Shown here piece after piece: positions 10,467 through 61,962 of a stretch of 64,000 nucleotides of DNA; position 1 is the stretch's first letter; each line of letters starts with the position of its first letter. The notes below the pieces were generated by a model. The model made no database searches. It was given only the letters and a program-made list of their open reading frames with translations, and was not told where the DNA came from. The translations under genes were made by a program, and so were the position numbers. The stretch lies in the NCBI GenBank assembly GCA_963736115.1, contig CAVTNR010000022.1:1-64000 (forward strand), written 5' to 3'. This stretch comes from an uncultured bacterium (GTDB lineage Bacteria > Zhuqueibacterota > QNDG01 > DTFT01).

Positions 10467-11399
10467 ATGCCGCGTCTTTCCAAACGGTTTCGCAAAGCGC
10501 GTAAGGCTGTTCAGCACCGAATCGAGTATGTCCTCTTCCGGGGGCTGGTTTATTTGTGCGGCCGTGCGTCCATGAAAACCGTTCGCCGTACGGCCGACGT
10601 CATGGGACGTCTCGCGTTCTCCGTTCTTCGCCTCCGCCGGTCCGTCACGCTCGACAATCTGGCCATCGCTTTCCCCGAAAAACCGGCCGAGGAACTTTGC
10701 CGCATCGGCCTCCGAACGTACCGCAATTTCGCCAGGACGTTCATCGAATTCCTGCGCTTTCCGGTCATGGACCGCGACGCTTTGATGTCGCTTTGCGATT
10801 TTCCGGGGCAGGCCGTTCTCGAGGACGCGCGTAAAAACGGAAAAGGCGCTCTTCTCATCAGCGGACATTTCGGCAACTGGGAAATCGTGGGGCCCTACCT
10901 CGCCGCGAGGGGAGTCGCCGTCTCCGGCATCATCGGCCGGCAGAAAAACCGCGCGGTCGACGAGGCGACCCGGCGTTTCCGCGAGAAACTGGGGATGCGG
11001 GTCATCCGTCCCGGTGTCGCGATCCGGGATGTTTTCCGCGCCTTGCGCTCAAACGATTGCGTGGCCATTCTCGCGGATCAGGACGCGCACGCAGGCGGTG
11101 TGTTCGTGGATTTCATGGGCCGAAAGGCTTCGAACCACCAGGGCCCGGCCGTTTTCTCGATCCGCACGGGCGCGCCGATCATTTTCGGATACGGTCTGCG
11201 GCTTCCGGACGGGCGGTACAGCATCGAGGCACAACCGCTCTCCATCGACAGCATCCGAGAGGAGACGCCGGAAAACGTACATCGCATCACCCAGGCCTAC
11301 ACCTCGCTACTGGAGAAAGCCGTGCGCGAGCATCCGGATCAGTATTTCTGGATGCACAAGCGGTGGAAGACGAGACCGGCGGGGGAACAAAGTTCATAG
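10467..11399 (+). CDS. Lipid A late acyltransferase (LpxL/HtrB family)
   Basis: GHFGNWE, LADQD, FMGRKA, HPDQYFWMHKRWK. Confidence 0.9.
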   Translation: MPRLSKRFRKARKAVQHRIEYVLFRGLVYLCGRASMKTVRRTADVMGRLAFSVLRLRRSVTLDNLAIAFPEKPAEELCRIGLRTYRNFARTFIEFLRFPVMDRDALMSLCDFPGQAVLEDARKNGKGALLISGHFGNWEIVGPYLAARGVAVSGIIGRQKNRAVDEATRRFREKLGMRVIRPGVAIRDVFRALRSNDCVAILADQDAHAGGVFVDFMGRKASNHQGPAVFSIRTGAPIIFGYGLRLPDGRYSIEAQPLSIDSIREETPENVHRITQAYTSLLEKAVREHPDQYFWMHKRWKTRPAGEQSS

Positions 11400-11494
11400 T
11401 TCATGGTTCATAGTTCATAAAAAAAAGACGGGGCCTTGGATGAAGGAGGCTGCCGTCTTTTTGCTTTTTAACTATGAACCATGAACTATGAACT
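11391..11494. repeat. Heptamer inverted-repeat element (RGTTCAT)n...(ATGAACY)n
   Basis: AGTTCATAGTTCATGGTTCATAGTTCAT ... ACTATGAACCATGAACTATGAACT. Confidence 0.9.
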
Positions 11495-13594: not shown

Positions 13595-13624
13595 TCGAAG
13601 CGATCCCCTCATTTATGAATCTGA

Positions 13625-13910
13625 TCGCTCGCGCATTCCCCGCCGCTTGCCTTCAACCAGAAGGCATATAATAGCTTGGTCCCGTGTAGCGGGCGGCGGG
13701 GTAAGCGAGTGAATATAATCTGTTTTCTTCTTTACAGATAGAAGATTCCCCGGCTTCGCCGGACCAAGCTATACAATTTTATCTGTTTGAAGGCCCGCGG
13801 CTTGCCTTCAATACTCCAGAAATATAATAAATTGGTCCCGCAAAGCGGGGTCTTCAATAATTTAAAAATACAATTGCTTGATCCCGAGCAGCGGGCCGCG
13901 GGGAGCTTCA
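13625..13910. mobile_element. Composite of palindromic repeats carrying four 44-45 bp core+hairpin units
   Basis: Units at 13650-13693(+), 13750-13793(-), 13805-13849(+), 13851-13895(+) interrupt the host hairpins CCCCGCCGCTTG^CGGCGGGG and CCCGCGGCTTG^CCGCGGGG; mobility is inferred. Confidence 0.65.
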
Positions 13911-14927
13911 AAGTCGCCGGACGGAACCGGCGTGCAGCCGGACCCGTGCCGCGACGCTCTCGGGCGTCGTGTCGATCATGCAGCGGAAATGCCGTTCCGG
14001 GCACCGCCTGCCCCCGTGCCGCGAGCAGGGCCTGCAAGCCAGGTCCTGCTCCAGAATTTCGTCTCCGGGCCGCCAGGGCGCGCAGCCGAAACGACGCACC
14101 GTGGGGCCGAATAGGGCGATCACGTCCGTTCCGGCCGCGTCGGCCATATGCAGGGGCGCGCTGTCATTGGTCACCAGCACATCCAGCCGGCTGAGCACGG
14201 CGGCGGACTCGAGCACGGACAATGCACCCGCGCAATTGACCGACCGGCTCCCCGTTCCGTCGAGCACGGAGGCGCAGAGGCTCCTGTCCTCAGGGCCTCC
14301 CACGGCTGTGAGGTTCATCCCTTCGGCCGAAAGGATGCGCGCCAGCGCGGCGTAATGCGATTCAGGCCAGCGTTTGGTGGGCCACACCGAACCGGGCGCC
14401 AGGCCCACCAGGGGGCCGCCGGCTCGCCGCAGGGAGGCGGTGACCGCATCCGCGGTTTGTTCCTCGGCTTCGGACCATCGCAATTCCGTGCGGTCGTCGA
14501 ATGTCCGGTCCGTAAACGGCGAGAGTAAAGTCAGATAGCGGCGCCGCATGTGCAGGCCCTTCGGCGGAGTAACCGGATGTGTCAGCCCCTTCTGGCGGCG
14601 GAATCCGACGCGAGTTCGGATGCCGGCCGCGGCCATGAGAAAGGACGCTGTGGCGTGAAGCTGGAGCGAGAAGGACGCGTCATAATGTTCCGACCTCAGG
14701 CTGCGCACAAGCCGGAACAGTCCGGCCGTCTTGCGGAAAACCGTGCTCTTGTCCAATGTCCACACCCGGTGGACCGCAGGCGAGTGCTGAAACACGATTT
14801 TCGTCTGGGGTACGGTAAGCGCATCCACCTGCGCGTCCGGGAAGACCTGCGCCAGAGCCCTGAAAAACGGGGTGGAAAGTATGACATCGCCGAGATAGGC
14901 GGTCTGGATCACCAGGATTTTCTTCAT
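13908..14927 (-). CDS. GT9 LPS heptosyltransferase (WaaF/WaaQ-like)
   Basis: QTAYLGDVILSTP, APGSVWPTKRWP, NDSAPLHMA, LFGPT. Confidence 0.9.
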   Translation of the reverse strand: MKKILVIQTAYLGDVILSTPFFRALAQVFPDAQVDALTVPQTKIVFQHSPAVHRVWTLDKSTVFRKTAGLFRLVRSLRSEHYDASFSLQLHATASFLMAAAGIRTRVGFRRQKGLTHPVTPPKGLHMRRRYLTLLSPFTDRTFDDRTELRWSEAEEQTADAVTASLRRAGGPLVGLAPGSVWPTKRWPESHYAALARILSAEGMNLTAVGGPEDRSLCASVLDGTGSRSVNCAGALSVLESAAVLSRLDVLVTNDSAPLHMADAAGTDVIALFGPTVRRFGCAPWRPGDEILEQDLACRPCSRHGGRRCPERHFRCMIDTTPESVAARVRLHAGSVRRL

Positions 14928-16911: not shown

Positions 16912-18112
16912 GATCCGGCTCCTCCCGGTTTCCGTCAGAAGGCGCGGCCGACGCGGAGCCGGACGGACCCTTTCGGTCGGATTCCACGATGGTCCGGATC
17001 CGGCGGGCCCGCTTCTCCCAGGTCCATTCCGCAGCCGCCTTCAGAACGTTCTCGCGCATCACCTGCCATCGGTCCCGCTGGGAAAAGAAGCGGTCGATCG
17101 CCGCGGCCATCGAGGCCTCGTTTTCCGGCGGGAAGAACAGCCCGGTTTCGTCCTCGCGGACCAGCTCCCGCATGGTGGGCAGATCCGCGGCGAGCACCGG
17201 TATGCCGTGCCCGAAATAGTCGAAAAGTTTCAGCGGGGAGGTGAGGTATCGGTTGAAAAACGTATCCCGGAGCGGCAATGCGCCGAGAGCGGCGCCGGAC
17301 AGGCAATTCTCCAGGGCCATACGATCGAGCCAGCCTGTGACTGTCACGTTGAGGCCGGCCGCGATTCCCGAGGCGTGTTTTTCAAATATCCGCACTTCCG
17401 CGGGCGTCTTCCCGCCGATGATGCGCACGGGCGGTTTTGTTTCGGACCGGGCGGCGGCCCTCAGCATCAGGTCCACGCCCTTATGGCTGTCGAGGGATCC
17501 GATGTAAACCAGTTCGCGGGGGTTGGAGGCGCCGGAGTGAACCTTCCAGAGCCCGGTCCGGGCCACGTGAACCGGCACGTCCGGAAAAGTCCTGCGGTAC
17601 CAGTCCCTCTGCGATTCCTGGAGGCAGATCACGGCGGTGAGTCCCGGTATGTTTTCCCGCTCCAGCCGCTCGAGCCGGCGTTTCCGGGACGGATGGACGT
17701 CGTCCCGCACGGACAGGTCCGCGTAAAAGTCGTGGCTCTCAAAATAGACGGGAATGCCGTATTCCCCCCGCAGGGTTTTGAGCATGGGCAGAAGCACGGG
17801 ATTTCTCGCGATTACCGCGTCGACCGCGCCGGACCGGATCAGGCCGGCCAGGCTGCGTTCGACGCTCCGGACATGCCAGAAGTGGGCGGGCATCCAGGAC
17901 GGGCTGGACACCGCGTGCACGTCCAGATTCGAAGGGGGCTTGAACCCGAAGCGGGAGCGGATGATTTCCGCCGGTTTGAGAGATGAGTTGCGGCGGATGT
18001 AATAGTGGCACCCATTGAAGGCATACGCCAGGGCCATGGCGTTATACGTGGCGAACGTGAAGCTCGGAGAGGGGGACGGAAAGCGTCCCGTGTGCGCGTA
18101 GGCGACGGGCAC
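16901..18112 (-). CDS. GT4 glycosyltransferase
   Basis: FESH, YIGSL..HKG, TSPLKLFDY, GT-B C-terminal WTWEKRA. Confidence 0.8.
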   Translation of the reverse strand: MPVAYAHTGRFPSPSPSFTFATYNAMALAYAFNGCHYYIRRNSSLKPAEIIRSRFGFKPPSNLDVHAVSSPSWMPAHFWHVRSVERSLAGLIRSGAVDAVIARNPVLLPMLKTLRGEYGIPVYFESHDFYADLSVRDDVHPSRKRRLERLERENIPGLTAVICLQESQRDWYRRTFPDVPVHVARTGLWKVHSGASNPRELVYIGSLDSHKGVDLMLRAAARSETKPPVRIIGGKTPAEVRIFEKHASGIAAGLNVTVTGWLDRMALENCLSGAALGALPLRDTFFNRYLTSPLKLFDYFGHGIPVLAADLPTMRELVREDETGLFFPPENEASMAAAIDRFFSQRDRWQVMRENVLKAAAEWTWEKRARRIRTIVESDRKGPSGSASAAPSDGNREEPDRAS

Positions 18113-27676: not shown

Positions 27677-27704
27677 TGGGGGAGGAGGGGCTTGTCGCCC
27701 AAAA

Positions 27705-27907
27705 GGCGATGGGATTGTGATGGGGGAGCGGAAGGGCGGGGCAGTGGGAAGGGTGTGGAAATCGCCCGAAGAGGCGATGGGATTGTGATGGGGGAGCGGA
27801 AGGGCGGGGCAGTGGGAAGGGTGTGGAAATCGCCCGAAGAGGCGATGGGATTGTGATGGGGGAGCGGAAGGGCGGGGCAGTGGGAAGGGTGTGGGAATCG
27901 CCCGAAG
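27705..27907 (+). repeat. Three tandem copies of a 68-bp G-rich unit
   Basis: Units start at 27705, 27773 and 27841; near-identical. Confidence 0.92.
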
Positions 27908-35706: not shown

Positions 35707-36420
35707 ATGGCAAAACTCGGCGTATGCATTGAACCCATTGCGCTGCTGCGGGACAGGGGGCGGATCGCCGACGCGGATCCCGTTCTGGCCTCGGTCTGGG
35801 CCGACCTGGGCGGCGCGGACCTGATCGTCTGCCCGCTCCGGGAGAGCCTGCACCCCCTGACCGACAGGGACGTGAAACTCATCAGAACGATGGTCAAACT
35901 GCCCGTGGAACTCCAGTTCTATCCGTCCGACACACTGGTCGGATTCGCGCCGACCGTTTCGCCCGAATGGATCACACTCGTGCCGGTGCGGCCGTCGGAC
36001 AATCCGGAAACGCCGCGTCCGGAGGGATCCGGACTGGTGGAGGACGTGGGCAAGGCCGTGCGGGAGCTGAAGTCGTCCGACCGGCGCGTGGGCCTGCGCA
36101 TCGAGCCGGAGATCGGCCAGGTGAAGGCCGCGGCTTCCATGGGGGTTGATTACGTGAAGTTCCGGATGGGCCGGCTGTCCGAGGCGCGGAGTCTGTCCGA
36201 GCGCGCGGAGGCGCTTGAATCCGCGGCTTCGCTGATTCTTGCGGCCGGCAAAATGGGATTGTCCGTCGCGCTGGAAGGCGATGTGGATTACCACAACGCG
36301 GCGGAATACTCCGGCCTGGGCAGGATCCATCATATCGCCGTGGGCGGCGCTATCGCCGGCCGCGCCCTGGCCGTGGGCATGGAACAGGCGGTGCGGGATA
36401 TGGCGGGGCTGGTTCACTGA
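35707..36420 (+). CDS. pdxJ: PdxJ-like protein with degenerate active site
   Basis: Colinear with PdxJ (KLGV, DPV, GAD, LRE, TDRDV, TLVP, YHN, AI.GRAL.VGM..AV) but catalytic His/Glu/Asn residues are substituted. Confidence 0.7.
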   Translation: MAKLGVCIEPIALLRDRGRIADADPVLASVWADLGGADLIVCPLRESLHPLTDRDVKLIRTMVKLPVELQFYPSDTLVGFAPTVSPEWITLVPVRPSDNPETPRPEGSGLVEDVGKAVRELKSSDRRVGLRIEPEIGQVKAAASMGVDYVKFRMGRLSEARSLSERAEALESAASLILAAGKMGLSVALEGDVDYHNAAEYSGLGRIHHIAVGGAIAGRALAVGMEQAVRDMAGLVH

Positions 36421-36424
36421 AAAC

Positions 36425-36563
36425 AAGTTCATGGTTGATAGTTCATAGTTCATTGTTAAAAAATGTTCGTGGTTTACAGTTCATCATTCATTGTGAATAA
36501 ATAGATTCATGAGCGACAGATTTTTTTCTGAACTATGAACTATGAACCATGAACTATGAACTG
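36425..36563. repeat. Heptamer inverted-repeat element
   Basis: GTTCATGGTTGATAGTTCATAGTTCAT ... TGAACTATGAACTATGAACCATGAACTATGAAC. Confidence 0.85.
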
Positions 36564-40781: not shown

Positions 40782-41273
40782 TTGAAGCGCGCTAAAAGCG
40801 CGCCCCGCGTCGGGCGTCCGCCGGCCGCCGGCCGCGGCGCGACCCGCCTGCGCGTGCCCGGCCTGACCGGGCGGCTGGAGGAGATCCGGACCTTCGTTTC
40901 GGGAATCGCGCGGAAGTCAGGTTTCGTCGAGGAGGAAGTGAACAAGATCGAACTCGCCGTGGATGAGGCTTGCTCGAACGTCATTGAGCATGCCTACGGG
41001 GAGGAACGGCCGGGGGACATTGACGTGGCCGTCCGGGCCGACCGGAACCGGCTCACGGTGACCGTGTCGGACACCGGGAAGAGTTTCCGGTTCGACGGCG
41101 TGCCCGTTCCCGACATGAAACAGTATCTTTCCGAGCTCCGGGTCGGCGGCCTGGGCATCTACCTGATGCGAATGCTGATGGATGACGTCACCTACCGGAC
41201 CCGGGCGGGCCGGAACGAACTCCGGATGGTGAAATACCGCGGCCGGACCAGTCCGTCCCGGGATAAAGACTGA
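40782..41273 (+). CDS. Anti-sigma Ser kinase (RsbW/SpoIIAB-like)
   Basis: LAVDEACSNVIEHAY, SDTG, GGLGIYLM..LMD; start uncertain. Confidence 0.88.
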   Translation: MKRAKSAPRVGRPPAAGRGATRLRVPGLTGRLEEIRTFVSGIARKSGFVEEEVNKIELAVDEACSNVIEHAYGEERPGDIDVAVRADRNRLTVTVSDTGKSFRFDGVPVPDMKQYLSELRVGGLGIYLMRMLMDDVTYRTRAGRNELRMVKYRGRTSPSRDKD

Positions 41274-41279
41274 ACGCTG

Positions 41280-43010
41280 ATGGAACCGACGGGACCCGCA
41301 TTCGCGCCGGACGCCAGCCTCTCGCTTGACCAGCGCCTTCTCGAACAGTCGGCCCTGTTCGAGATGTGCCACACCATCACTTCCTCGCTGAGTCTCGGCG
41401 CCATCGTCGAGAACATGCTCCGCATCCCCATGGGCTATTTCCTTATCGCGCGGGGTATCGTCCTGCTGCGGGACCCGAAAGAACCCGAATACCGGGTCGA
41501 GGGGCTGCGGGGCATCCCTCGCGACATTTTCCATAAAACGCTCCGACTGAACGATCCGCCCGGACACTCCGTGCTGATGCGCGACCACACCGGCGAGGAG
41601 GAATGGGCGGCTTTTTTCAGGGGATTCGGAATCGAAATCGTCCTGCCCCTCGCGACCTCGCGGGGCGTGCTCGGCCTGCTCGGATTCGGCGAAAGAATCG
41701 GCGGGCAGACATTCGGCCTGCGGGAAATCGAATTTCTCGATTCCCTTTCCGGAATCGCGGGGACCGCGGTCGCGAACGGCCTTCTCGTCGAGGAGATCCG
41801 AAGCGTCAATCAGCAGCTCGACCGCAAGATCCAGCAGCTGCACACGATCTTCGACATCGGACGGGAGCTGAACGTGACCCTCGACACGGAGAAGATCGGG
41901 CATATCCTGAGCTTCGCCATCATGGGAGAATTGCTGGTGAACCGGTGCATGGTGCTGGCGGAAAAAGGGGAGGGCGCGGGCATCCGGGTTCTGGTTTCAA
42001 AGGGCGCTGTCTCGGCCCCGCCGGCGGATCCCGCCTGGCTCCGGCTGGCGAAACCCGAAACGTCCACGGGGGACGGTTTTTTCCCGGAATGGAAGCAGGC
42101 CGGCATCACCGCGCTGGTGCCGATGCGCATGCACGACGAAACCCGGGGGCTTCTGGCGCTCGGCCCGAAACTGTCAGGCGAGCCGTTTTCCGAATCCGAC
42201 CTGGAGTTTCTCTCCACCCTCGGGCACCAGGCGATGTCCTCCATCGAAAACGTCCGGCTGTTCCGCGAGGCTCTGGACAAAGAGCGGATGGAGGAGGAAC
42301 TGCGCTTCGCCCGCGGCATCCAGCAGGATCTTCTGCCCCGATCCATGCCGCCGATGAAGGGCCTCGACATCGCGGCCGTGAACGTTCCCAGCCGGGAGAT
42401 CGGAGGCGATTCCTACGACGTCCTTCAGCTTGACGCGGCCCGCGTGGGGTTCGCGATCGCCGATGTGTCCGGCAAGGGCGCCGGCGCCGCCCTGCTGATG
42501 GCCAATCTGCAGGCCAGCCTGCGCGCGCTGGCGGGCACCGGACTCCCGATTCGGGAACTGGTGTTCCGGATCAACAACCTGATCCATCGGAACACCGCGC
42601 TCGACAAATTCATCACGTTCTTCTACGGCGTGCTCGACACGGAGGCGCGGACCTTCGTTTTCTGCAATGCCGGCCATAATCCGCCCATCCGCGTGTCGGC
42701 CGGGGGGGACGAGACGCTCCTCGAGAAGGGGGGCGTCATCCTGGGCATGATGGCGAATGTCCCATACGAAACCGGCGAGGTTTCGCTCGTCCCGGGCGAC
42801 CGGCTGTTGTTCTATACGGACGGCGTCTCCGAGGCGGTGAATGAAAAAGGCGAGGAATTCGGCACCGACCGGATCATGGACGTGCTCCGGTCCGGACGGG
42901 AAGAGTCGGCCTCCGGCCTGATCGAGGCCATGATGGATGCGGTAGGGCGGTTCCGCGGCAAGGCGGAGCAGAACGACGATTTGACGCTGATGGCGGTGAA
43001 GATCGAGTGA
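41280..43010 (+). CDS. Double-GAF PP2C (RsbU-like) phosphatase
   Basis: Two GAF-like repeats, IGGDSYD, ADVSGKG, NAGHNPP, YTDGVSEA, DDLT. Confidence 0.92.
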   Translation: MEPTGPAFAPDASLSLDQRLLEQSALFEMCHTITSSLSLGAIVENMLRIPMGYFLIARGIVLLRDPKEPEYRVEGLRGIPRDIFHKTLRLNDPPGHSVLMRDHTGEEEWAAFFRGFGIEIVLPLATSRGVLGLLGFGERIGGQTFGLREIEFLDSLSGIAGTAVANGLLVEEIRSVNQQLDRKIQQLHTIFDIGRELNVTLDTEKIGHILSFAIMGELLVNRCMVLAEKGEGAGIRVLVSKGAVSAPPADPAWLRLAKPETSTGDGFFPEWKQAGITALVPMRMHDETRGLLALGPKLSGEPFSESDLEFLSTLGHQAMSSIENVRLFREALDKERMEEELRFARGIQQDLLPRSMPPMKGLDIAAVNVPSREIGGDSYDVLQLDAARVGFAIADVSGKGAGAALLMANLQASLRALAGTGLPIRELVFRINNLIHRNTALDKFITFFYGVLDTEARTFVFCNAGHNPPIRVSAGGDETLLEKGGVILGMMANVPYETGEVSLVPGDRLLFYTDGVSEAVNEKGEEFGTDRIMDVLRSGREESASGLIEAMMDAVGRFRGKAEQNDDLTLMAVKIE

Positions 43011-47019: not shown

Positions 47020-47140
47020 GTTCATCGTTCATGGTTCCTGGTTCATAGTTCAAAAAAATGTAATTTATCAGTATTGATTTCCTTCTTTCACTATGAACGA
47101 TACACTATCAACAATGAACTGTTTTCACAATGAACCATGA
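47019..47140. repeat. Heptamer inverted-repeat element
   Basis: GTTCATCGTTCATGGTTCCTGGTTCATAGTTC ... CTATGAAC..CAATGAAC..CAATGAACCATGAA. Confidence 0.8.
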
Positions 47141-49908: not shown

Positions 49909-52242
49909 ATGACCGTTCCCGACCACGCACAGCCGCCGTCTCCGCGCTCCATGAACTTCATCCTGGTGAGCGCCTTTTTCAGCCTGTTCTACTGGGTGCT
50001 TGAATCCGTGCGCGACGTCATTGTGTTCGACAAGGGCACGATCTGGAGCCGCCTGTTCAAACCAGACCTGATGAGCTTCTGGATGCGGATGCTCATCGTC
50101 TGCATCCTGTTCCTCTTCGGCATCTACGCGCAGTCCCTGAAACAAAAGCTCGATGTGCCGGACGTGAAGGCGCAGAAGCGGCTTCGGCGTCTTGGCATGG
50201 TCTGGCGGGGACTCGGATTCGGCCTGCTGTACTGGGTGCTGGAGGCGTTCCGCGATGTGATCGTCTTTCACAAGGGCGGCTTGCTCGAGCGGCTGTTTCA
50301 GCCCGATCTGATCAGCGTCTGGATGCGCCTGCTCGCCGTCTGCGTCATGCTGCTGTTCAGCGTCTATGCGGAAAACCTGTTCGAGGAGCGCGAGAGGGCC
50401 AAACAGGCGCTGCAGAAGGCGCATGACGATCTTGAAGATCTCGTCCGGAAGAGGACGTCCGAGCTGGTCCAGTCCTATGAAATGCTCAAGCGGGAGAACG
50501 AGGAACGGAGCCACGTCGAGGACGAACTGCTCCGAGTCAACCGGGCGCTGAAAACCCTGTCGCAATGCAACGAGGTCATGGTCCGGGCAACCGAGGAGAA
50601 AGCGCTCTTCGACAGCGTCTGCCGCATCCTGGTGGACGTGGGCGGCTATCCCTTCACCTGGGTCGGGCTGGCCGAACCGGACGGCCCCGGCCTCCTGCGG
50701 CCCGTCGCGTCCGCCGGCCGCGCGGATTACGGTTTCGCGCCGGAATCCATGGTGTCGGACGGGGCCGGCGGGAATCCGTTTTTCGGGGTGATCCGCGACG
50801 GCCGGCCGAAGCGGATTCCGCTGACCGGCGGGGATTTGCCGGGATCGCAATGGTCGCGTCCGGCCGTGGAACAGGGGTTTACATCCGCGCTGGCCCTTCC
50901 GCTGACCGCGGGGGAAAAAACATACGGCGTCCTATGCATCTTCTCCGTGGCTGCGGAGTCTTTCGACACTTCCGAGATCGACCTGATGCAGGAGCTCGCG
51001 GACGACCTGGCCTTCGGGGTCACCGCGCTCCGCACCCGGCTCGAGCGGAACCGAGCGGAGGAGGAGAACGAGAAAATGCGGGCCCAGCTCCTCCACGCTC
51101 AGAAGCTCGAGGCCGTGGGCATACTGGCCGGGGGCGTGGCGCACGATTTCAACAACCTTCTGACGGCCATCCAGGTCAGCGCCGATCTCGCCATGCTGGA
51201 CATACGGGACGGCGACCCGGTCCGCAACACGCTGCAGGAAATCCACCAGACGGCCGCCCGTGCGGGGGATCTGGCCCGCCAGCTCCTTCTGTTCAGCCGC
51301 AAACATCCGATGGAATACACTCCGCTGAACATCAACCAGACGATCGAGCACCTCAATAAAATGCTGCACCGTCTCATCGGTGAGGATATCGAGATTCAAA
51401 TGGCCCTGTGCCGGAATCCCTGGAGCGTCATGGCCGACCGGGGGACCATCGAGCAGCTGCTGGTGAACATCGCGGTGAATGCGCGAGACGCCATGCCCGA
51501 AGGCGGTCAGCTCCTCATCCGGTCCGCCAACATCGAGATTTCGCCGGAGGAGTCGCGGCGGATACCGGAGTCCCGGCCGGGGCAATTCGTCCGCCTCACC
51601 CTGCAGGACACCGGCATCGGCATGACGCCCGAGACCCTGTCCCGCATCTTCGAGCCGTTTTTCAGCACCAAAGGCCCGGGCCGCGGAACCGGCCTGGGGC
51701 TCTCGGTGGTCTACGGCATCGTCAAACAGCATGAGGGGTGGATCAATGTGACGAGCAGTCCCGGAAACGGGGCGCGCTTCGAGGTCTATCTGCCGGCGGT
51801 GTCGGAATCCGCGGCCGCCGATCTGCCCCAGAGCGTTGCGCCGGGCGACCTGCAGGGCAGGGGAGAGCGGATTCTGCTGGTCGAGGATGAGAACAGCGTG
51901 CGGGAATACACGGAAAAAGCGCTGACCAAGTCCGGCTACCGGGTGGAAACCGCGACCAGCGCCCAGGAGGCCATGGCCGTTTTCGAACGGGAGAAGACTG
52001 CCTTTGACCTGGTCTTCAGCGATGTCGTGCTTCCCGACCGCAGCGGCATCGAACTCGTGGAAAACCTGAAGGCCCGCAACCGGGACCTGGCCGTTTTGCT
52101 GAACAGCGGGTACACGGATCACAAATCCCAGTGGCCGCTGATCGTGCAGAAGGGCTTCCGCTACCTGCAGAAGCCCTACTCCCTCAACGAGCTCCTGAAG
52201 GCGATGCGGGAGGTTCTTCAGAAAGACAAAAGAAGTTCATAG
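49909..52242 (+). CDS. Hybrid sensor histidine kinase (membrane sensor, GAF, HisKA, HATPase, receiver)
   Basis: QKLEAVG.LAGGVAHDFNN, NARDAM, DTGIGM, GTGLGL, C-terminal receiver; start uncertain. Confidence 0.93.
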   Translation: MTVPDHAQPPSPRSMNFILVSAFFSLFYWVLESVRDVIVFDKGTIWSRLFKPDLMSFWMRMLIVCILFLFGIYAQSLKQKLDVPDVKAQKRLRRLGMVWRGLGFGLLYWVLEAFRDVIVFHKGGLLERLFQPDLISVWMRLLAVCVMLLFSVYAENLFEERERAKQALQKAHDDLEDLVRKRTSELVQSYEMLKRENEERSHVEDELLRVNRALKTLSQCNEVMVRATEEKALFDSVCRILVDVGGYPFTWVGLAEPDGPGLLRPVASAGRADYGFAPESMVSDGAGGNPFFGVIRDGRPKRIPLTGGDLPGSQWSRPAVEQGFTSALALPLTAGEKTYGVLCIFSVAAESFDTSEIDLMQELADDLAFGVTALRTRLERNRAEEENEKMRAQLLHAQKLEAVGILAGGVAHDFNNLLTAIQVSADLAMLDIRDGDPVRNTLQEIHQTAARAGDLARQLLLFSRKHPMEYTPLNINQTIEHLNKMLHRLIGEDIEIQMALCRNPWSVMADRGTIEQLLVNIAVNARDAMPEGGQLLIRSANIEISPEESRRIPESRPGQFVRLTLQDTGIGMTPETLSRIFEPFFSTKGPGRGTGLGLSVVYGIVKQHEGWINVTSSPGNGARFEVYLPAVSESAAADLPQSVAPGDLQGRGERILLVEDENSVREYTEKALTKSGYRVETATSAQEAMAVFEREKTAFDLVFSDVVLPDRSGIELVENLKARNRDLAVLLNSGYTDHKSQWPLIVQKGFRYLQKPYSLNELLKAMREVLQKDKRSS

Positions 52243-52333
52243 TTCATAGAAAAAGCCGCAAGCAGAGGTTTGCGGCTTTTTAACTGTATCGGGGGGAGGT
52301 GAACTATGAACCATGAACAATGAACAATGAACT
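52234..52333. repeat. Heptamer inverted-repeat element enclosing a terminator hairpin
   Basis: AGTTCATAGTTCATAG ... TGAACTATGAACCATGAACAATGAACAATGAAC. Confidence 0.85.
52250..52281. terminator. Bidirectional intrinsic terminator
   Basis: AAAAAGCCGCAA...TTGCGGCTTTTT between convergent genes. Confidence 0.75.
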
Positions 52334-53165: not shown

Positions 53166-53259
53166 AGTTCATAGTTCATGGTTCATAGTTAAGAGAAATT
53201 TTGGAAAAGCGTTTATTTTTCTTTTTCAACAATGAACTATGAACCATGAACCATGAACT
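53166..53259. repeat. Heptamer inverted-repeat element
   Basis: AGTTCATAGTTCATGGTTCATAGTT ... AACAATGAACTATGAACCATGAACCATGAACT. Confidence 0.9.
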
Positions 53260-55820: not shown

Positions 55821-55886
55821 GTTCCGAGTTCCGGGTTTCGGGTTCCGGGTTGAAGAACTCGGAACACGGAACTCGAAACCTGGAAC
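55821..55886. repeat. Second heptamer inverted-repeat family (GTTCCGR)n...(YCGGAAC)n
   Basis: GTTCCGAGTTCCGGGTTTCGGGTTCCGGGTT-gaag-AACTCGGAACACGGAACTCGAAACCTGGAAC. Confidence 0.88.
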
Positions 55887-58114: not shown

Positions 58115-58197
58115 AGTTCATAGTTCATGGTTCCTAGTTCATAGTTGAAAAGGAAAATCTGTCTCAACAATGAACAATGAACTATGAACCATGAACT
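58115..58197. repeat. Heptamer inverted-repeat element
   Basis: AGTTCATAGTTCATGGTTCCTAGTTCATAGTT ... AACAATGAACAATGAACTATGAACCATGAACT. Confidence 0.9.
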
Positions 58198-58242: not shown

Positions 58243-61200
58243 ATGAAATTCATCGCGGACTTCCACATCCATTCGCATTTCTCGCTCGCCACGAGCGGCC
58301 TGCTCAAGCCGGAGCATCTCGACCGGTGGGGCCGCATCAAGGGCATCCGGGTCATCGGAACCGGCGACTTCACCCACCCGGGCTGGGTGGCGGAATTGAA
58401 GGAAAAGCTGGATCCCGCGGAACCGGGTTTGTACAGACTCAAGCCGGCGCTCCGTCTGCCCGCATTTGGAGGCCCGACGGATGCGGACGACGGCGTCCGC
58501 TTCATGCTCACCGCAGAGATCAGCTGTATCTACAAGCGGTCGGGCCGCGTGCGCAAGGTGCACAATGTTGTCTTTGCGCCGGATTTCGAGAGCGCGGAGC
58601 GCATCCAAAGCCGGCTCAGGTCCATGGACTTCAATATCACCTCGGACGGACGGCCCATTCTCGGTTTCGATTCACGGGACCTGCTTGAACTCTGCCTGAA
58701 CGCCTCTCCGGACATCTTCTTCGTCCCGGCCCACATCTGGACGCCGTGGTTTTCCGCGCTCGGCGACAAGTCCGGATTCGATTCGATCCGCGAATGTTAC
58801 GCGGACCTGTCGGATCACATTCATGCCGTGGAAACCGGGCTCTCGTCCGATCCAGCGATGAACCGGCTGTGCAGTCAACTCGATCCGTACGCCCTCATCT
58901 CTAATTCAGACGCCCATTCGCCCGAGAAACTTGGACGCGAGGCGAACCGGTTCGATGCGGAACTCTCGTACCCCGCCATCATGGAAGCGCTGAAGCATCC
59001 GGACTCGGGCCGGTTTCTCGGAACAGTGGAATTCTTTCCCCAGGAAGGCAAATACCACCACGACGGACACCGCAAATGCGGCATTTCCTGGACGCCGGAT
59101 GAGACGGATCGGCATGCCGGGATCTGTCCCGTGTGCGGGAAACAAGTGACCGTCGGCGTTCTCAATCGTGTGCATCAGCTGGCGGACCGCAGCGGCCAGG
59201 AGGAGAAAATCGGACGGCCGACGTTCCGGTCCATCATTCCGCTCTGCGAAGTGCTGTCCGAGATCCGAGGCACAGGTCCGCACAGCAAGGCGGTGCAGGC
59301 TGATTACGCGGCCGTGGTCCGGAAACTCGGAAGCGAGCTGGACATTCTGCTCGAAGCGGAAGCAGAGGACATCCGGAATGCCGGGGGCGCATTGCTCGTC
59401 GAGGCGGTCAAGCGGATGCGGGATGGACGCGTGTCCGTTGAGGCGGGCTATGACGGGGAATACGGCCGTATTCGCGTATTCGGTCCGGAAGACAGACAGT
59501 CGCTCAGTCAGGAGAGTCTGTTCATCGGTGATTCCGAGCCAGTCGGACAACCGGTCCGGCGGGGGCGCATGAAAAAAAGCGAGGCCGCGGTCGGTGAAAA
59601 AGGATCGAACGGGTCCGGAAGAAAGGAGACGGGGAAGGACGCCGCAGGCGCCGGATTCATCCTTTCGGCACGGCCGAATACCCGTGCCCTTTCAGCGGAG
59701 GAGGGATCCGGCGGGACCGCAGGAGAGGGATCCGGGACGACCGGCCGAGTTCCGCTCAACGCGGAGCAGGAAGCGGCCGCGATTCACGACAGCGGGCCCG
59801 CGCTGGTTCTGGCCGGTCCCGGAACAGGCAAAACAGCCGTGCTGACCGGCCGGATTCTCCGCCTGATACAAGGTCGCGGCGTTCCGCCGGAACGCATTCT
59901 CGCCATCACCTTCACCAACAAGGCTGCTGAAGAGATACGCAGCCGTGTGTCCGCGGCCACCGGGGGGCCGGTAGAAGGGAAGCGGATGCCGTCCGTCCTG
60001 ACTTTCCATTCCTTCGGCCATGCTTTGCTCCGGGAGCGGCCGGACTGTTTCGGCCGGAACCGTGATTTCCGCATCGCGGATGAAGACGACACGCTCGATA
60101 TCCTCAGAACCTTATATCCGGAATCAAAAGACGTTCGTCGTTTCGCGAAAATGCTGAAACAGTCGGTGGGAAAAGCCGGACCGGAGACGGGAGTGACGGA
60201 CGCGGATGCTTCGGACGGGGAACAGCAGGCGCTGAGGGACCGTTACGAAGAAGCGCTCCGGTCCGAAAACCTGTTTGATTTCAGCGATCTGCTGACCCGG
60301 CCGTTGCGGCTGTTCCGGGAGGATGCGGAATGGGCCCGTTCCGTTGCCGGCCGGTACGATCACATCCTGGTGGACGAGTTCCAGGACGCGGACGAAGCGC
60401 AGTACGAGTGGATGAGGCTTCTGGCTGGGCGGGATTCCGGGGCGGGGTCGCCTCATCTCTGGGCGGTGGGAGACCCGGACCAGTCCATATACGGTTTCCG
60501 CGGCGCCAGCCCGGTTTTCATGACCCGGTTCACCGAGGATTTCCCGGGCGTCACGGTGTACCGTCTGACGCGCAGTTACCGGTGTCCGGATACGGTGCTG
60601 CGGGCATCGGGGATGGTTTTACTGAAAGCCGGTTCCGGGTTCCGAGTTCCGGGTTCCGTGTTGGAAGAGAGCGGTTCCGCGTTCCGCGTTCCGGGTTCCG
60701 GGTCGAAAAATGAAAATGATTCGGAAAATGATTCGGGGGGTGTGTCATGCCCGTTAAAACGGACCAAGCAATCCTATTTCTTGAATAGGGAAGGCCCGCA
60801 TTCCTTAAGCGGGCATCCAGGGGCGTGGGTAGAGAGGTCGAATCTCCGCGGAACGGACGAGAAGGTCAAGGTCCGCATTGCGGGAAACGTATCCGAGGCG
60901 TCCGAGGCGGAGTTCATCAGCCGCACCATTGAGGCGATGACGGGCGGCGTTCGGTTCTTTTCCATGGACAGCGGCATCACAACCGGAGCGGAGGAGGAAT
61001 CGCTTGGTTTTTCCGACTTCGCCGTGCTGTGCCGGATCAGCCGTCAGTTTCCGGCATTGGAAAAAGCATTTCGCGATCACGGCATTCCGTACCGCCGCTC
61101 GGACGCGGAGCCGTTCTACAGGCGGGAGCCCGCGAAAACAATCGTTAAGGCGCTTAAAAAATGTTCCGTGTTTCGGGTTCCGGGTTCCGGGTTAAAAGAA

Positions 61201-61962
61201 ACGGGTTCCGAGTTCCGAGTTCAGGGTTCCGGGTTGAAAAACGAAAATGATTCAGGGGGGGATGTCATTCCCGTTGAAACGGACCAAGCAATTCTATTTA
61301 TTGATCGTGGAAGGCCCGCGTTCTTGAAGCGGGAATCCAGGGAGGGGGGAGAGAGTTCAGAGGAAGAGAAGGCTTCCGAGTTCCGGGTCCCGAGTTCGGA
61401 GTTGAACGAAAAGGAATGGTCCGAGCTTGCGGCCGTCACGGGCAGGGTGCCTGTCCGCGACCTGATCCACAGGCTGATCTCCGTCCTCCCTCCGGTTTCG
61501 GATCCCGCGGACAGGCTCGATCTGGAACTGCTGGCGGAGCGGTCCGTCCCGTTCGGAACGGACTTGCCCGCTTTTCTGGCCGCGCTGGCCCTGGGATCAG
61601 GACCCGACTGGGTCCGTACCGGAGGCGATTCCGTATCGCTCTTCACCTTGCACGCGGCCAAGGGGCTGGAATTCCCGTGCGTCTTCATCGCGGGCGTGGA
61701 GGACGGCCTTCTGCCCTACACCCTGTCCGGTCAATCCTCCTGCGACCCGGAAGAGGAACGCCGTCTGCTTTACGTGGGCATGACGCGCGCCAAGAAGCAT
61801 CTGATCCTGTCCCACGCCGACCGGCGGGAGCTGTTCGGCCGCATGCGCAATCCCGCGAGAAGCCCGTTTCTCGATGACATCGAACAGACGCTTCTCAGCA
61901 CTGGAAAAGCGCAGGGAAAGAGGGGCCGAAAGCCCGGCCGGGACCAGTTGAATCTGTTTTAG
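58243..61962 (+). CDS. EndoQ-family PHP nuclease fused to UvrD/PcrA SF1 helicase
   Basis: DFHIHS, GTGDFTHP, PAHIWTPW, ETGLSSD, NSDAHS, GKYH.DGH..C, CPVCG; then AGPGTGKT, TFTNKAA, VDEFQD, GDPDQSIYGFRG, TLHAAKGLEF, EERRLLYVGMTRA. Confidence 0.93.
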   Translation: MKFIADFHIHSHFSLATSGLLKPEHLDRWGRIKGIRVIGTGDFTHPGWVAELKEKLDPAEPGLYRLKPALRLPAFGGPTDADDGVRFMLTAEISCIYKRSGRVRKVHNVVFAPDFESAERIQSRLRSMDFNITSDGRPILGFDSRDLLELCLNASPDIFFVPAHIWTPWFSALGDKSGFDSIRECYADLSDHIHAVETGLSSDPAMNRLCSQLDPYALISNSDAHSPEKLGREANRFDAELSYPAIMEALKHPDSGRFLGTVEFFPQEGKYHHDGHRKCGISWTPDETDRHAGICPVCGKQVTVGVLNRVHQLADRSGQEEKIGRPTFRSIIPLCEVLSEIRGTGPHSKAVQADYAAVVRKLGSELDILLEAEAEDIRNAGGALLVEAVKRMRDGRVSVEAGYDGEYGRIRVFGPEDRQSLSQESLFIGDSEPVGQPVRRGRMKKSEAAVGEKGSNGSGRKETGKDAAGAGFILSARPNTRALSAEEGSGGTAGEGSGTTGRVPLNAEQEAAAIHDSGPALVLAGPGTGKTAVLTGRILRLIQGRGVPPERILAITFTNKAAEEIRSRVSAATGGPVEGKRMPSVLTFHSFGHALLRERPDCFGRNRDFRIADEDDTLDILRTLYPESKDVRRFAKMLKQSVGKAGPETGVTDADASDGEQQALRDRYEEALRSENLFDFSDLLTRPLRLFREDAEWARSVAGRYDHILVDEFQDADEAQYEWMRLLAGRDSGAGSPHLWAVGDPDQSIYGFRGASPVFMTRFTEDFPGVTVYRLTRSYRCPDTVLRASGMVLLKAGSGFRVPGSVLEESGSAFRVPGSGSKNENDSENDSGGVSCPLKRTKQSYFLNREGPHSLSGHPGAWVERSNLRGTDEKVKVRIAGNVSEASEAEFISRTIEAMTGGVRFFSMDSGITTGAEEESLGFSDFAVLCRISRQFPALEKAFRDHGIPYRRSDAEPFYRREPAKTIVKALKKCSVFRVPGSGLKETGSEFRVQGSGLKNENDSGGDVIPVETDQAILFIDRGRPAFLKRESREGGESSEEEKASEFRVPSSELNEKEWSELAAVTGRVPVRDLIHRLISVLPPVSDPADRLDLELLAERSVPFGTDLPAFLAALALGSGPDWVRTGGDSVSLFTLHAAKGLEFPCVFIAGVEDGLLPYTLSGQSSCDPEEERRLLYVGMTRAKKHLILSHADRRELFGRMRNPARSPFLDDIEQTLLSTGKAQGKRGRKPGRDQLNLF
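60631..60820. repeat. Composite repeat inside the helicase CDS (heptamers + REP-like hairpin + 45-bp unit), copy 1
   Basis: (GTTCCGR)n arms, then GTCATG^[60750-60794]^CCCGCATTCCTTAAGCGGGCATCCAG. Confidence 0.85.
61163..61404. repeat. Composite repeat inside the helicase CDS, copy 2
   Basis: (GTTCCGR)n arms, then GTCATT^[61270-61314]^CCCGCGTTCTTGAAGCGGGAATCCAG, then another heptamer run. Confidence 0.85.

Follow-up and report, generated by a model that had tools for sequence, protein, structure and literature searches.

An open reading frame (ORF) of 1239 amino acids in a 64,000-nucleotide stretch of DNA from an uncultured bacterium (contig CAVTNR010000022.1, positions 1 to 64,000; hereafter the window) encodes a UvrD/PcrA-type helicase that is interrupted by two composite inserts, in each of which three unrelated repeat families are stacked. 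The two loops that hold these inserts are probably permissive sites of a functional helicase that have acted as sinks for short repeats, with the inserted DNA being read through into protein and filtered only for an open frame. The layering of the repeats is directly visible, since both sites are empty in orthologues outside the genus and half filled in congeneric alleles, and each layer belongs to a separate family. The parts of the gene and of its inserts are as follows.

58243..61962, forward strand: host gene from the ORF list, 1239 amino acids, a PHP-like N-terminal domain fused to a UvrD/PcrA-type helicase
60631-60843, forward strand: insert 1, 213 bp, amino acids 797-867, a composite repeat in the loop that joins the SYRC helix to the following strand
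60632-60659 and 60674-60701, forward strand: two four-unit GTTCCGN arrays of insert 1, giving peptides of the FRVPGS type
60706..60743, forward strand: linker AAAAATGAAAATGATTC (60706-60722) with a 12-bp duplication (GAAAATGATTCG twice), then a G6 run and TGT
60744-60753, forward strand: left hairpin arm of insert 1, GTCATGCCCG
60795-60820, forward strand: right hairpin part of insert 1, CCCGC..GCGGGMATCCAG
60744..60820, forward strand: 77-bp long-form core of insert 1, GTCATGCCCG and CCCGCATTCCTTAAGCGGGCATCCAG split by a 45-bp unit, translated as VSCPLKRTKQSYFLNREGPHSLSGHP
61165-61404, forward strand: insert 2, 240 bp, amino acids 975-1054, a composite repeat where the 2B-like region begins
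61163-61190 and 61205-61232, forward strand: two four-unit heptamer arrays of insert 2
61237..61263, forward strand: linker AAAAACGAAAATGATTC (61237-61253), then A, a G7 run and AT
61264-61273, forward strand: left hairpin arm of insert 2, GTCATTCCCG
61315-61340, forward strand: right hairpin part of insert 2, CCCGC..GCGGGMATCCAG
61264..61340, forward strand: 77-bp long-form core of insert 2, GTCATTCCCG and CCCGCGTTCTTGAAGCGGGAATCCAG split by a 45-bp unit (about 61274-61318), translated as DVIPVETDQAILFIDRGRPAFLKRES
61341..61404, forward strand: G-rich tail of insert 2, with a G6 run at 61344-61349
61374-61403 (61380-61400 in a narrower delimitation), forward strand: third, degenerate heptamer array of insert 2, in direct orientation

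The order of parts is common to both inserts (two GTTCCGN arrays, linker AAAAAYGAAAATGATTC, G run, GTCATKCCCG, 45 bp, CCCGC..GCGGGMATCCAG, G-rich tail), and the two can be aligned with 78% identity over 204 nt by blastn (E = 7e-44) and with a mean column identity of 81% by MAFFT. Identity is 85% over 91 nt between the array parts, which lie 531 nt apart and so share a frame, and 82% over 95 nt between the cores, which lie 520 nt apart and are therefore read in different frames, as VSCPLKRTKQSYFLNREGPH in copy 1 and DVIPVETDQAILFIDRGRPAF in copy 2. This shift arises because the stretch of linker and G run in insert 2 is 1 nt longer. Both inserts have lengths divisible by three. The 45-bp unit of insert 1 occupies approximately 60754-60798, with an edge that is ambiguous within a CCCG direct repeat flanking the unit. 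No inverted repeats were found within 60400-61600, and the in-gene arrays are all in direct orientation; a miniature inverted-repeat transposable element (MITE) would be recognized by inverted repeats at its ends together with a target-site duplication.

The original prediction, made from the letters of the window, was of two composite inserts in which homologous DNA is read in two frames. Both inserts were recovered with all of the elements described; the change of frame holds for the cores, and the peptides that had been quoted are true translations (amino acids 834-853 and 1007-1027). The accompanying claim of an exact 45-bp unit stands as to length, each unit being exactly 45 bp when measured against the empty sites of the congeners, but not as to sequence, the two units being identical at 38 of 45 positions. 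Insert 1 had been placed after helicase motif IV; it instead lies before the canonical motif IV, between motif III (GDPDQSIYGFRGA, amino acids 743-755) and the FAVLCRISRQ motif (amino acids 926-935), which aligns to PcrA 343-400 in a PDB match.

The C-terminal two thirds of the 1239-residue protein constitute the UvrD/PcrA-type helicase, with Pfam matches to UvrD-helicase (amino acids 505-768; 3e-68) and UvrD_C (3e-31) and PDB matches to UvrD1, PcrA, UvrD and Rep at 1e-61 to 1e-71. The N-terminal domain is conserved and has a weak Pfam match to PHP_C. An alignment of the helicase part alone was built from 45 sequences, comprising the present genome, one congener and 43 orthologues from other genera and many phyla, and all 45 of its 45 invariant columns are retained in the present helicase; together, the Pfam domains, the PDB matches and the invariant residues place the protein in the UvrD/PcrA/Rep group of superfamily 1 helicases. 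The gene was found in every one of the 41 relatives searched, and the complete orthologous ORFs extracted from other genera span 1071-1193 amino acids versus 1239 here. The ratio of nonsynonymous to synonymous substitution rates (dN/dS) of the helicase core, computed for the present allele against four congeneric alleles, is 0.19-0.24, which indicates that the core is under purifying selection and, together with the frame, stop-codon and structural results below, argues for a working gene.

In the 43 orthologues from other genera the segment corresponding to site 1 is 16-33 amino acids long, versus 86 in the present protein, and that corresponding to site 2 is 14-71 amino acids long, versus 87; this spread marks both sites as naturally length-variable loops. 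The stretch between the two sites is constant, at 94-99 amino acids in every sequence of the 45-sequence alignment. The composite inserts are absent at both sites in orthologues outside the genus, so that the comparison proposed with the original prediction, in which conservation of the segments as protein would have spoken against it, reveals no counterpart of either insert and no conservation of the peptides.

Within the genus, five alleles are available from four genomes: that of the present genome (G000), two from the congener G001 (G001a, L021, and G001b, L022) and one each from G002 (L002) and G003 (L023). They differ at precisely the two insert sites. The G003 allele carries arrays only. 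In G001a each site has arrays, joined at site 2 by a mosaic unit in reverse orientation. Arrays and a hairpin are found at each site in G001b and G002, whose alignment to the present allele shows a gap of exactly 45 columns at the position of the additional unit; site 1 of G002 holds a further hairpin as well. By eye, orthologous flanks resemble each other more than paralogous flanks do in this comparison, and the idea that the two composites evolve in concert was set aside on that ground. The layered invasion that had been proposed is thus observed, in empty sites outside the genus, in alleles of L002 and L022 that lack the 45 bp, and in a distinct genome-wide family with its own range for each layer. 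Parsimony over the three lineages favours an insertion of the 45-bp unit in the lineage of the present genome. The five-allele series (empty, array only, with hairpin, with nested unit) offers a stepwise view of non-coding selfish repeats turning into protein.

The G001 bin carries two helicase versions that are unlike in insert content, one on C170 (L021) and the other on C246 and C364 (L022, L003), which could mean that the bin mixes two strains or that the gene is duplicated.

The first layer consists of heptamer arrays. Counting at least three successive exact GTTCNNN units, 213 arrays are present in the genome; most are of GTTCATA or GTTCATG, with GTTCCGG and GTTCCGA as the further unit types. 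Their typical setting is an inverted pair of four-unit arrays between genes, often around a terminator-like hairpin. Matches to the array pattern number 168 in the present genome, 198 in G001, 37 in G002 and 48 in G003, against 0-2 in other genera of the order, and a plain GTTCATT microsatellite occurs in two genomes of the same phylum; the array pattern is essentially genus-specific. Since three 7-nt units make 21 nt, an array reads as one seven-residue peptide, circularly permuted, in every frame. Forward frames are free of stops in 184 of 186 cases in non-GTTCAT arrays versus 235 of 453 in GTTCAT arrays, and the arrays at 60632..60701 are stop-free in all six frames.

Seven intergenic inverted pairs of the form (RGTTCAT)4 .. 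(ATGAACY)4 lie in the window, at 11391-11494, 36418-36562, 47020-47120, 52234-52332, 53166-53258, 55821-55879 and 58115-58196; the pair at 55821 is of the GTTCCGG type, and in several pairs the arrays stand on either side of a terminator-like GC hairpin with a T run after it. Arrays also occur in other coding sequences of the genome. An activase with BcrAD_BadFG and DUF2229 domains (C17:828-4070, L104) contains a whole inverted array pair in frame between its two ATPase domains (EVHSSWFIVHSS ... NYEPGTMNHEL), and an OPT transporter (C17:12106-14385, L105) contains one in-frame GTTCCGG array (SSGFRVPGS) within the OPT domain. In a pseudouridine synthase (C5:73276-74619, L106) and a PNPOx-like protein (C4:43066-44010, L107) the frames run beyond the domains through arrays (SKFKVQ.. 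and FRVPSS.., respectively), and these extensions may be repeat-derived C-terminal tails.

The second layer is an oriented hairpin of 32 bp, GTCATYCCCG..CGGGRATCCAG, with 36 matches in the genome; upstream of many of these, as of the helicase copies, lie a heptamer array, a TGAT-type linker and a G run. The strict hairpin pattern occurs in 22 of the 41 relatives, and in none of the reversed controls. It closely resembles a family described in Neisseria. In PMC11893778, the Neisseria Transformation Sequence (NTS) is defined as CGTCATTCCCGCGMAVGCGGGAATCYRG, alongside a degenerate Ssn-related motif (SRM), and both are given as single-strand DNA targets of small GIY-YIG nucleases (Ssn), the genes of which are typically flanked by an NTS/SRM motif; nucleases of this kind are assigned to cd10448 and cut the motif only when it is single-stranded; SsnA is described there as cleaving a few nucleotides upstream of the NTS, and the NTS repeats of Neisseria as modulating the integration of transforming DNA. 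The published SRM motif fits the short-form hairpins of the congeners' helicases (two in L002 and two in L022) and does not fit either of the split long forms in the window. The motif taken alone is loose, with 53 matches in the genome versus 28 in the reversed control, 24 of the 53 forming a hairpin of at least 5 bp.

The genome contains seven GIY-YIG matches. Homologues of the small GIY-YIG proteins were found in 13 of 21 relatives, and a hairpin lies within 300 bp at 10 of 16 homologous loci. The hairpin is thus both multi-copy and spatially tied to small single-domain GIY-YIG genes, as would be expected of an SRM, and by its sequence it probably belongs to the NTS/SRM class. The proteins themselves have no family in NCBIfam, and their sole PDB match is a weak one to a UPF0213 protein; they are referred to here as Ssn-like.

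Two of these genes illustrate the arrangement. A gene for a GIY-YIG protein of about 95 amino acids on C26 (17703-17987) is bracketed by two inverted 27-bp hairpins (locus 17600-18080, L148/L166), and its frame extends into the downstream hairpin, while a GIY-YIG gene on C8 (41057-41344) has head-to-tail tandem hairpin units of 27-32 nt (GTCATCCCCTCAGTTTTCAGGCGGGAT..) on both sides (locus 40900-41620, L146/L151). In addition, a 49-53-bp variant of the hairpin (GTCATCCCCGCG..GTGTCTTTTTCATCCGCGTCAGCGGACGGGGATCCAG) with a second small hairpin nested in it occurs at seven places, for example C2:102842-102893, C8:234040-234091 and C12:381471-381522, and the hairpin family seems prone to nested additions.

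The third layer, found at these sites in the present genome only, is the 45-bp unit GGACCAAGC..GGAAGGCCCG that splits the hairpin. It belongs to a mosaic repeat, GGACCAAGC..GAAGGCCCG, units of which combine with small GC hairpins between genes, and its core (GGACCAAGCNAT..GAAGGC) defines a family of 74 copies in the genome. The mosaic unit occurs in 10 of the 41 genomes searched, chiefly in the genus (72, 36, 32 and 23 pattern matches, plus 13 in one other genus; none in controls). Long-form hairpins, in which the unit is nested at one position and in one orientation, account for 5 of the 36 hairpins; two are those in the helicase and three are intergenic on contig C8. A 4-bp CCCG (or CCCA) direct repeat flanks the unit in all five long forms and is also part of the consensus end of the unit itself. 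The repeat could be a target duplication, a microhomology or a substrate for deletion, and its presence in the unit's own end suggests that it may represent microhomology rather than duplication.

An intergenic mosaic of the family of the helicase 45-bp unit is present at 13600-13920 of the window. CCCGC..GCGGG hairpins are interspersed among its three GAYCAAGCNAT..TTGAAGRC units, which occur in both orientations and have longer inverted repeats on either side. A second GIY-YIG paralogue (C9:110219-110533) was considered as a partner of the 45-bp unit, copies of which lie 231-275 bp away in this genome, and was rejected since none of five homologous loci in relatives showed the association. 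A link with integron-like attC repeats was also set aside, since visual inspection showed no fit of the unit to the core-site consensus of attC.

Across the helicase alleles the seven hairpin copies fall into all three frames, two in frame a, four in frame b and one in frame c. At site 2 the orthologous hairpin is read as DVIP.. (frame a) in the present genome and in G001b and as VSFP.. (frame b) in G002, the switch being due to a 1-nt change in the upstream G run that is compensated in the downstream G run. Such switching implies conservation at the DNA level rather than of the peptide, as had been proposed from the two copies in the window. Each 77-bp core has no stop codon in its own frame only and at least one in the frame used by the other copy, and among the three intergenic long forms one of nine forward frames is open. 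The only visible constraint on the inserts is therefore an open frame, because one DNA sequence is read in three. The dN/dS of the aligned insert codons, against the same four alleles, is roughly 0.53-0.80, suggesting that the inserts evolve nearly neutrally.

AlphaFold2 run on the 45-sequence alignment gave a model with a predicted template-modelling score of 0.78 and a predicted local distance difference test (pLDDT) score mostly above 90. The pLDDT falls below 50 at model residues 316-375 (insert 1) and 490-563 (insert 2), with a few other short loops also being low. Both inserts are thus predicted to be disordered loops on a confident helicase fold, in agreement with the earlier suggestion that the repeats create new protein loops.

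The most probable account of these results is that two length-variable, structurally permissive loops have collected short interspersed repeats of three kinds: the genus-specific (GTTCNNN)4 arrays; an ancient oriented 32-bp hairpin with G-run flanks, probably of the NTS/SRM class and a predicted Ssn target; and, in the present genome only, the 45-bp mosaic unit, which would have entered the hairpin at a fixed position and orientation, flanked by CCCG. The inserts would be translated as disordered loops, presumably harmless to the enzyme, with selection acting on the open frame and on an overall length that stays in register and not on the peptide.

Several observations weigh against this interpretation. 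A deletion between the CCCG repeats could also yield the short forms. The two helicase 45-bp units are mutual best matches (0.88), one of them tying with an unrelated copy, and independent insertion is indistinguishable from copying between the two sites. Searches around the transposase and GIY-YIG genes found no mobilizing enzyme for the arrays or the 45-bp unit, and there are no arrays, hairpins or mosaic units within 1.5 kb of the three Y1_Tnp matches and one IS110-type match in the genome. The stop-free array types make up 4 of 6 arrays inside genes versus 58 of 207 otherwise, which is a trend only (p = 0.06), and three of the six in-gene arrays belong to this one helicase gene. The dN/dS values of the inserts are rough, coming from short repeat-rich alignments made at the protein level, and translation of the inserts is a prediction, none of the sequencing runs listed being of RNA. 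Five DNA sequencing runs contain 5-11% of the sampled words. The contigs obtained from sequencing runs are mostly G002-like short-form alleles, and independent reads lend the long form little support: a single 151-nt contig of an unrelated run spans 61280-61430 at 97% identity (four differences), and no independent contig spans the 45-bp unit of insert 1. A metagenome scan for further congeneric alleles returned 32 loci, the best at 64% identity and none from congeners.

The inserts might instead have a role at the DNA level. The SRM hairpins on the coding strand, their G6-G7 flanks and the 7-nt arrays could make the helicase a contingency locus, in which Ssn nicking or slippage drives remodelling, the control of recombination or perhaps ON/OFF switching, and in which the 45-bp unit disarms the target. 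The genome encodes hairpin-flanked Ssn-like genes, the congeners' copies fit the SRM motif and the long forms here do not, the frame switch between L002 and the present allele is accounted for by compensating 1-nt changes in the G runs around the hairpin, and NTS repeats affect the integration of transforming DNA in Neisseria, according to PMC11893778. However, frequent slippage would call for longer tracts than G6-G7 runs and four-unit arrays, the SsnA cut site given in the same paper is upstream of the NTS and not at the point of the 45-bp insertion, only 5 of 36 hairpins are split and three of these are outside genes, and nothing found ties Ssn activity to the helicase gene. This explanation is accordingly considered unlikely. 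If it were true, a DNA-repair helicase would be undergoing rapid, frame-compensated remodelling, and the loops would not be passive dumps.

The presence of inserts at both sites in all four congeneric genomes (five alleles), together with peptides that are rich in Gly, Ser and Glu, predicted to be disordered and linker-like, could also suggest that the insert peptides are adaptive, selected because they serve the helicase as flexible linkers or as loops for interaction and so confer a new property. Against this, the frame in which one DNA sequence is read changes between orthologous sites, no two alleles agree in content, the insert dN/dS is well above that of the core and most copies of these repeats elsewhere in the genome lie between genes, making an adaptive peptide improbable.

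Removal of the inserts before the mature protein is formed, whether from the RNA in the manner of a small intron or from the protein in that of an intein, was raised with the original prediction and has very little to recommend it. Folding does place a small hairpin in the core; nevertheless, the long-form cores fold no better than shuffled sequences (z = -0.79, 0.17 and 0.30), nor does the array block, and Rfam gave no match at the gathering score in 60500-61500, only two at chance level (E = 4-6). A length that is a multiple of three and freedom from stops only in the frame used are not needed for excision. Known inteins are larger than the 71-80 amino acids of these inserts, which have no conserved peptide and ends that vary between alleles. 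Self-splicing introns and inteins are marked by a conserved catalytic RNA structure or by conserved splice-junction residues and intein blocks, which the Rfam and folding results and the variable ends and peptides speak against here.

An artefact or decay, that is repeats misassembled in a genome of 31 contigs, where each repeat has many copies and independent read support is thin, or a pseudogene open by chance, is scarcely credible: three further congeners, each assembled independently, carry homologous composites at both sites, the unrelated contig lies over part of insert 2, the core dN/dS is about 0.2 and the invariant helicase residues are retained. Misassembly is thus unlikely, although the support from that contig is thin and no independent contig covers the 45-bp unit of insert 1.

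The reading of the two loops as repeat sinks has partial precedents. The settlement of small repeats in frame within genes is already known from Rickettsia palindromic elements (RPEs), which are found in frame in Rickettsia protein-coding genes (Ogata et al. 2000, as cited in the review PMC10969869). As there, short selfish repeats lie in functional genes with the frame kept and add a peptide segment where the fold tolerates it, and the present gene is open and apparently functional by its ORF, its core dN/dS and its low-confidence loops. By the same account, an RPE family is a single element of about 150 bp with one conserved peptide in one frame, whereas here three unrelated families are stacked or nested, the seven hairpin copies show one module being read in three frames, and each congeneric allele has its own remodelled version of the two sites.

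Four-unit heptamer arrays have likewise been described before, in Xanthomonas and Nostoc (Rehm et al. 2015, PMC4692102), where the arrays similarly consist of 7-nt units, with four units preferred, and are genome-wide and mostly non-coding. The units there are G-rich quadruplex formers (GGGNATC type), in contrast to GTTCATR or GTTCCGN here, and the arrays here are usually inverted pairs around terminator-like hairpins, with stop-free variants in frame in genes.

The oriented hairpin with a GTCAT leader is nearly the NTS in sequence and, like the NTS/SRM elements of PMC11893778, is multi-copy and flanks small single-domain GIY-YIG genes, both here and in relatives. It differs in having G-run flanks, in losing its fit to the published motif through the 45-bp split, and in lying within coding sequence that is read through, while the NTS is given in that text as rarely intragenic (2% in N. 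meningitidis 8013). The same text also discusses bacterial interspersed mosaic elements (BIMEs) and repetitive extragenic palindromes (REPs). The 45-bp unit belongs to a family of comparable build, short hairpins and AT-rich units being combined both ways into intergenic mosaics, but no RAYT or IS200-type gene is near any copy examined, and here one unit is nested in another repeat inside a gene. BIMEs and REPs are mosaic repeats of intergenic regions.

What is new in the present gene is the stacking of three unrelated repeat families at two loops, the graded series of congeneric alleles, the reading of one module in three frames and the occurrence of a predicted Ssn-type target hairpin inside coding sequence, split in the present genome by a probable nested insertion. 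NTS/SRM-type hairpins are thereby placed within a coding region of a distant uncultured lineage, and the pair of intact and split hairpins provides natural material for probing recognition by Ssn nucleases.

Elsewhere in the window, an Rfam scan at the gathering score returned three tRNAs and nothing else, and a tandem repeat with a 68-bp period (3.1 copies, 97% matches) is present at 27695-27907.

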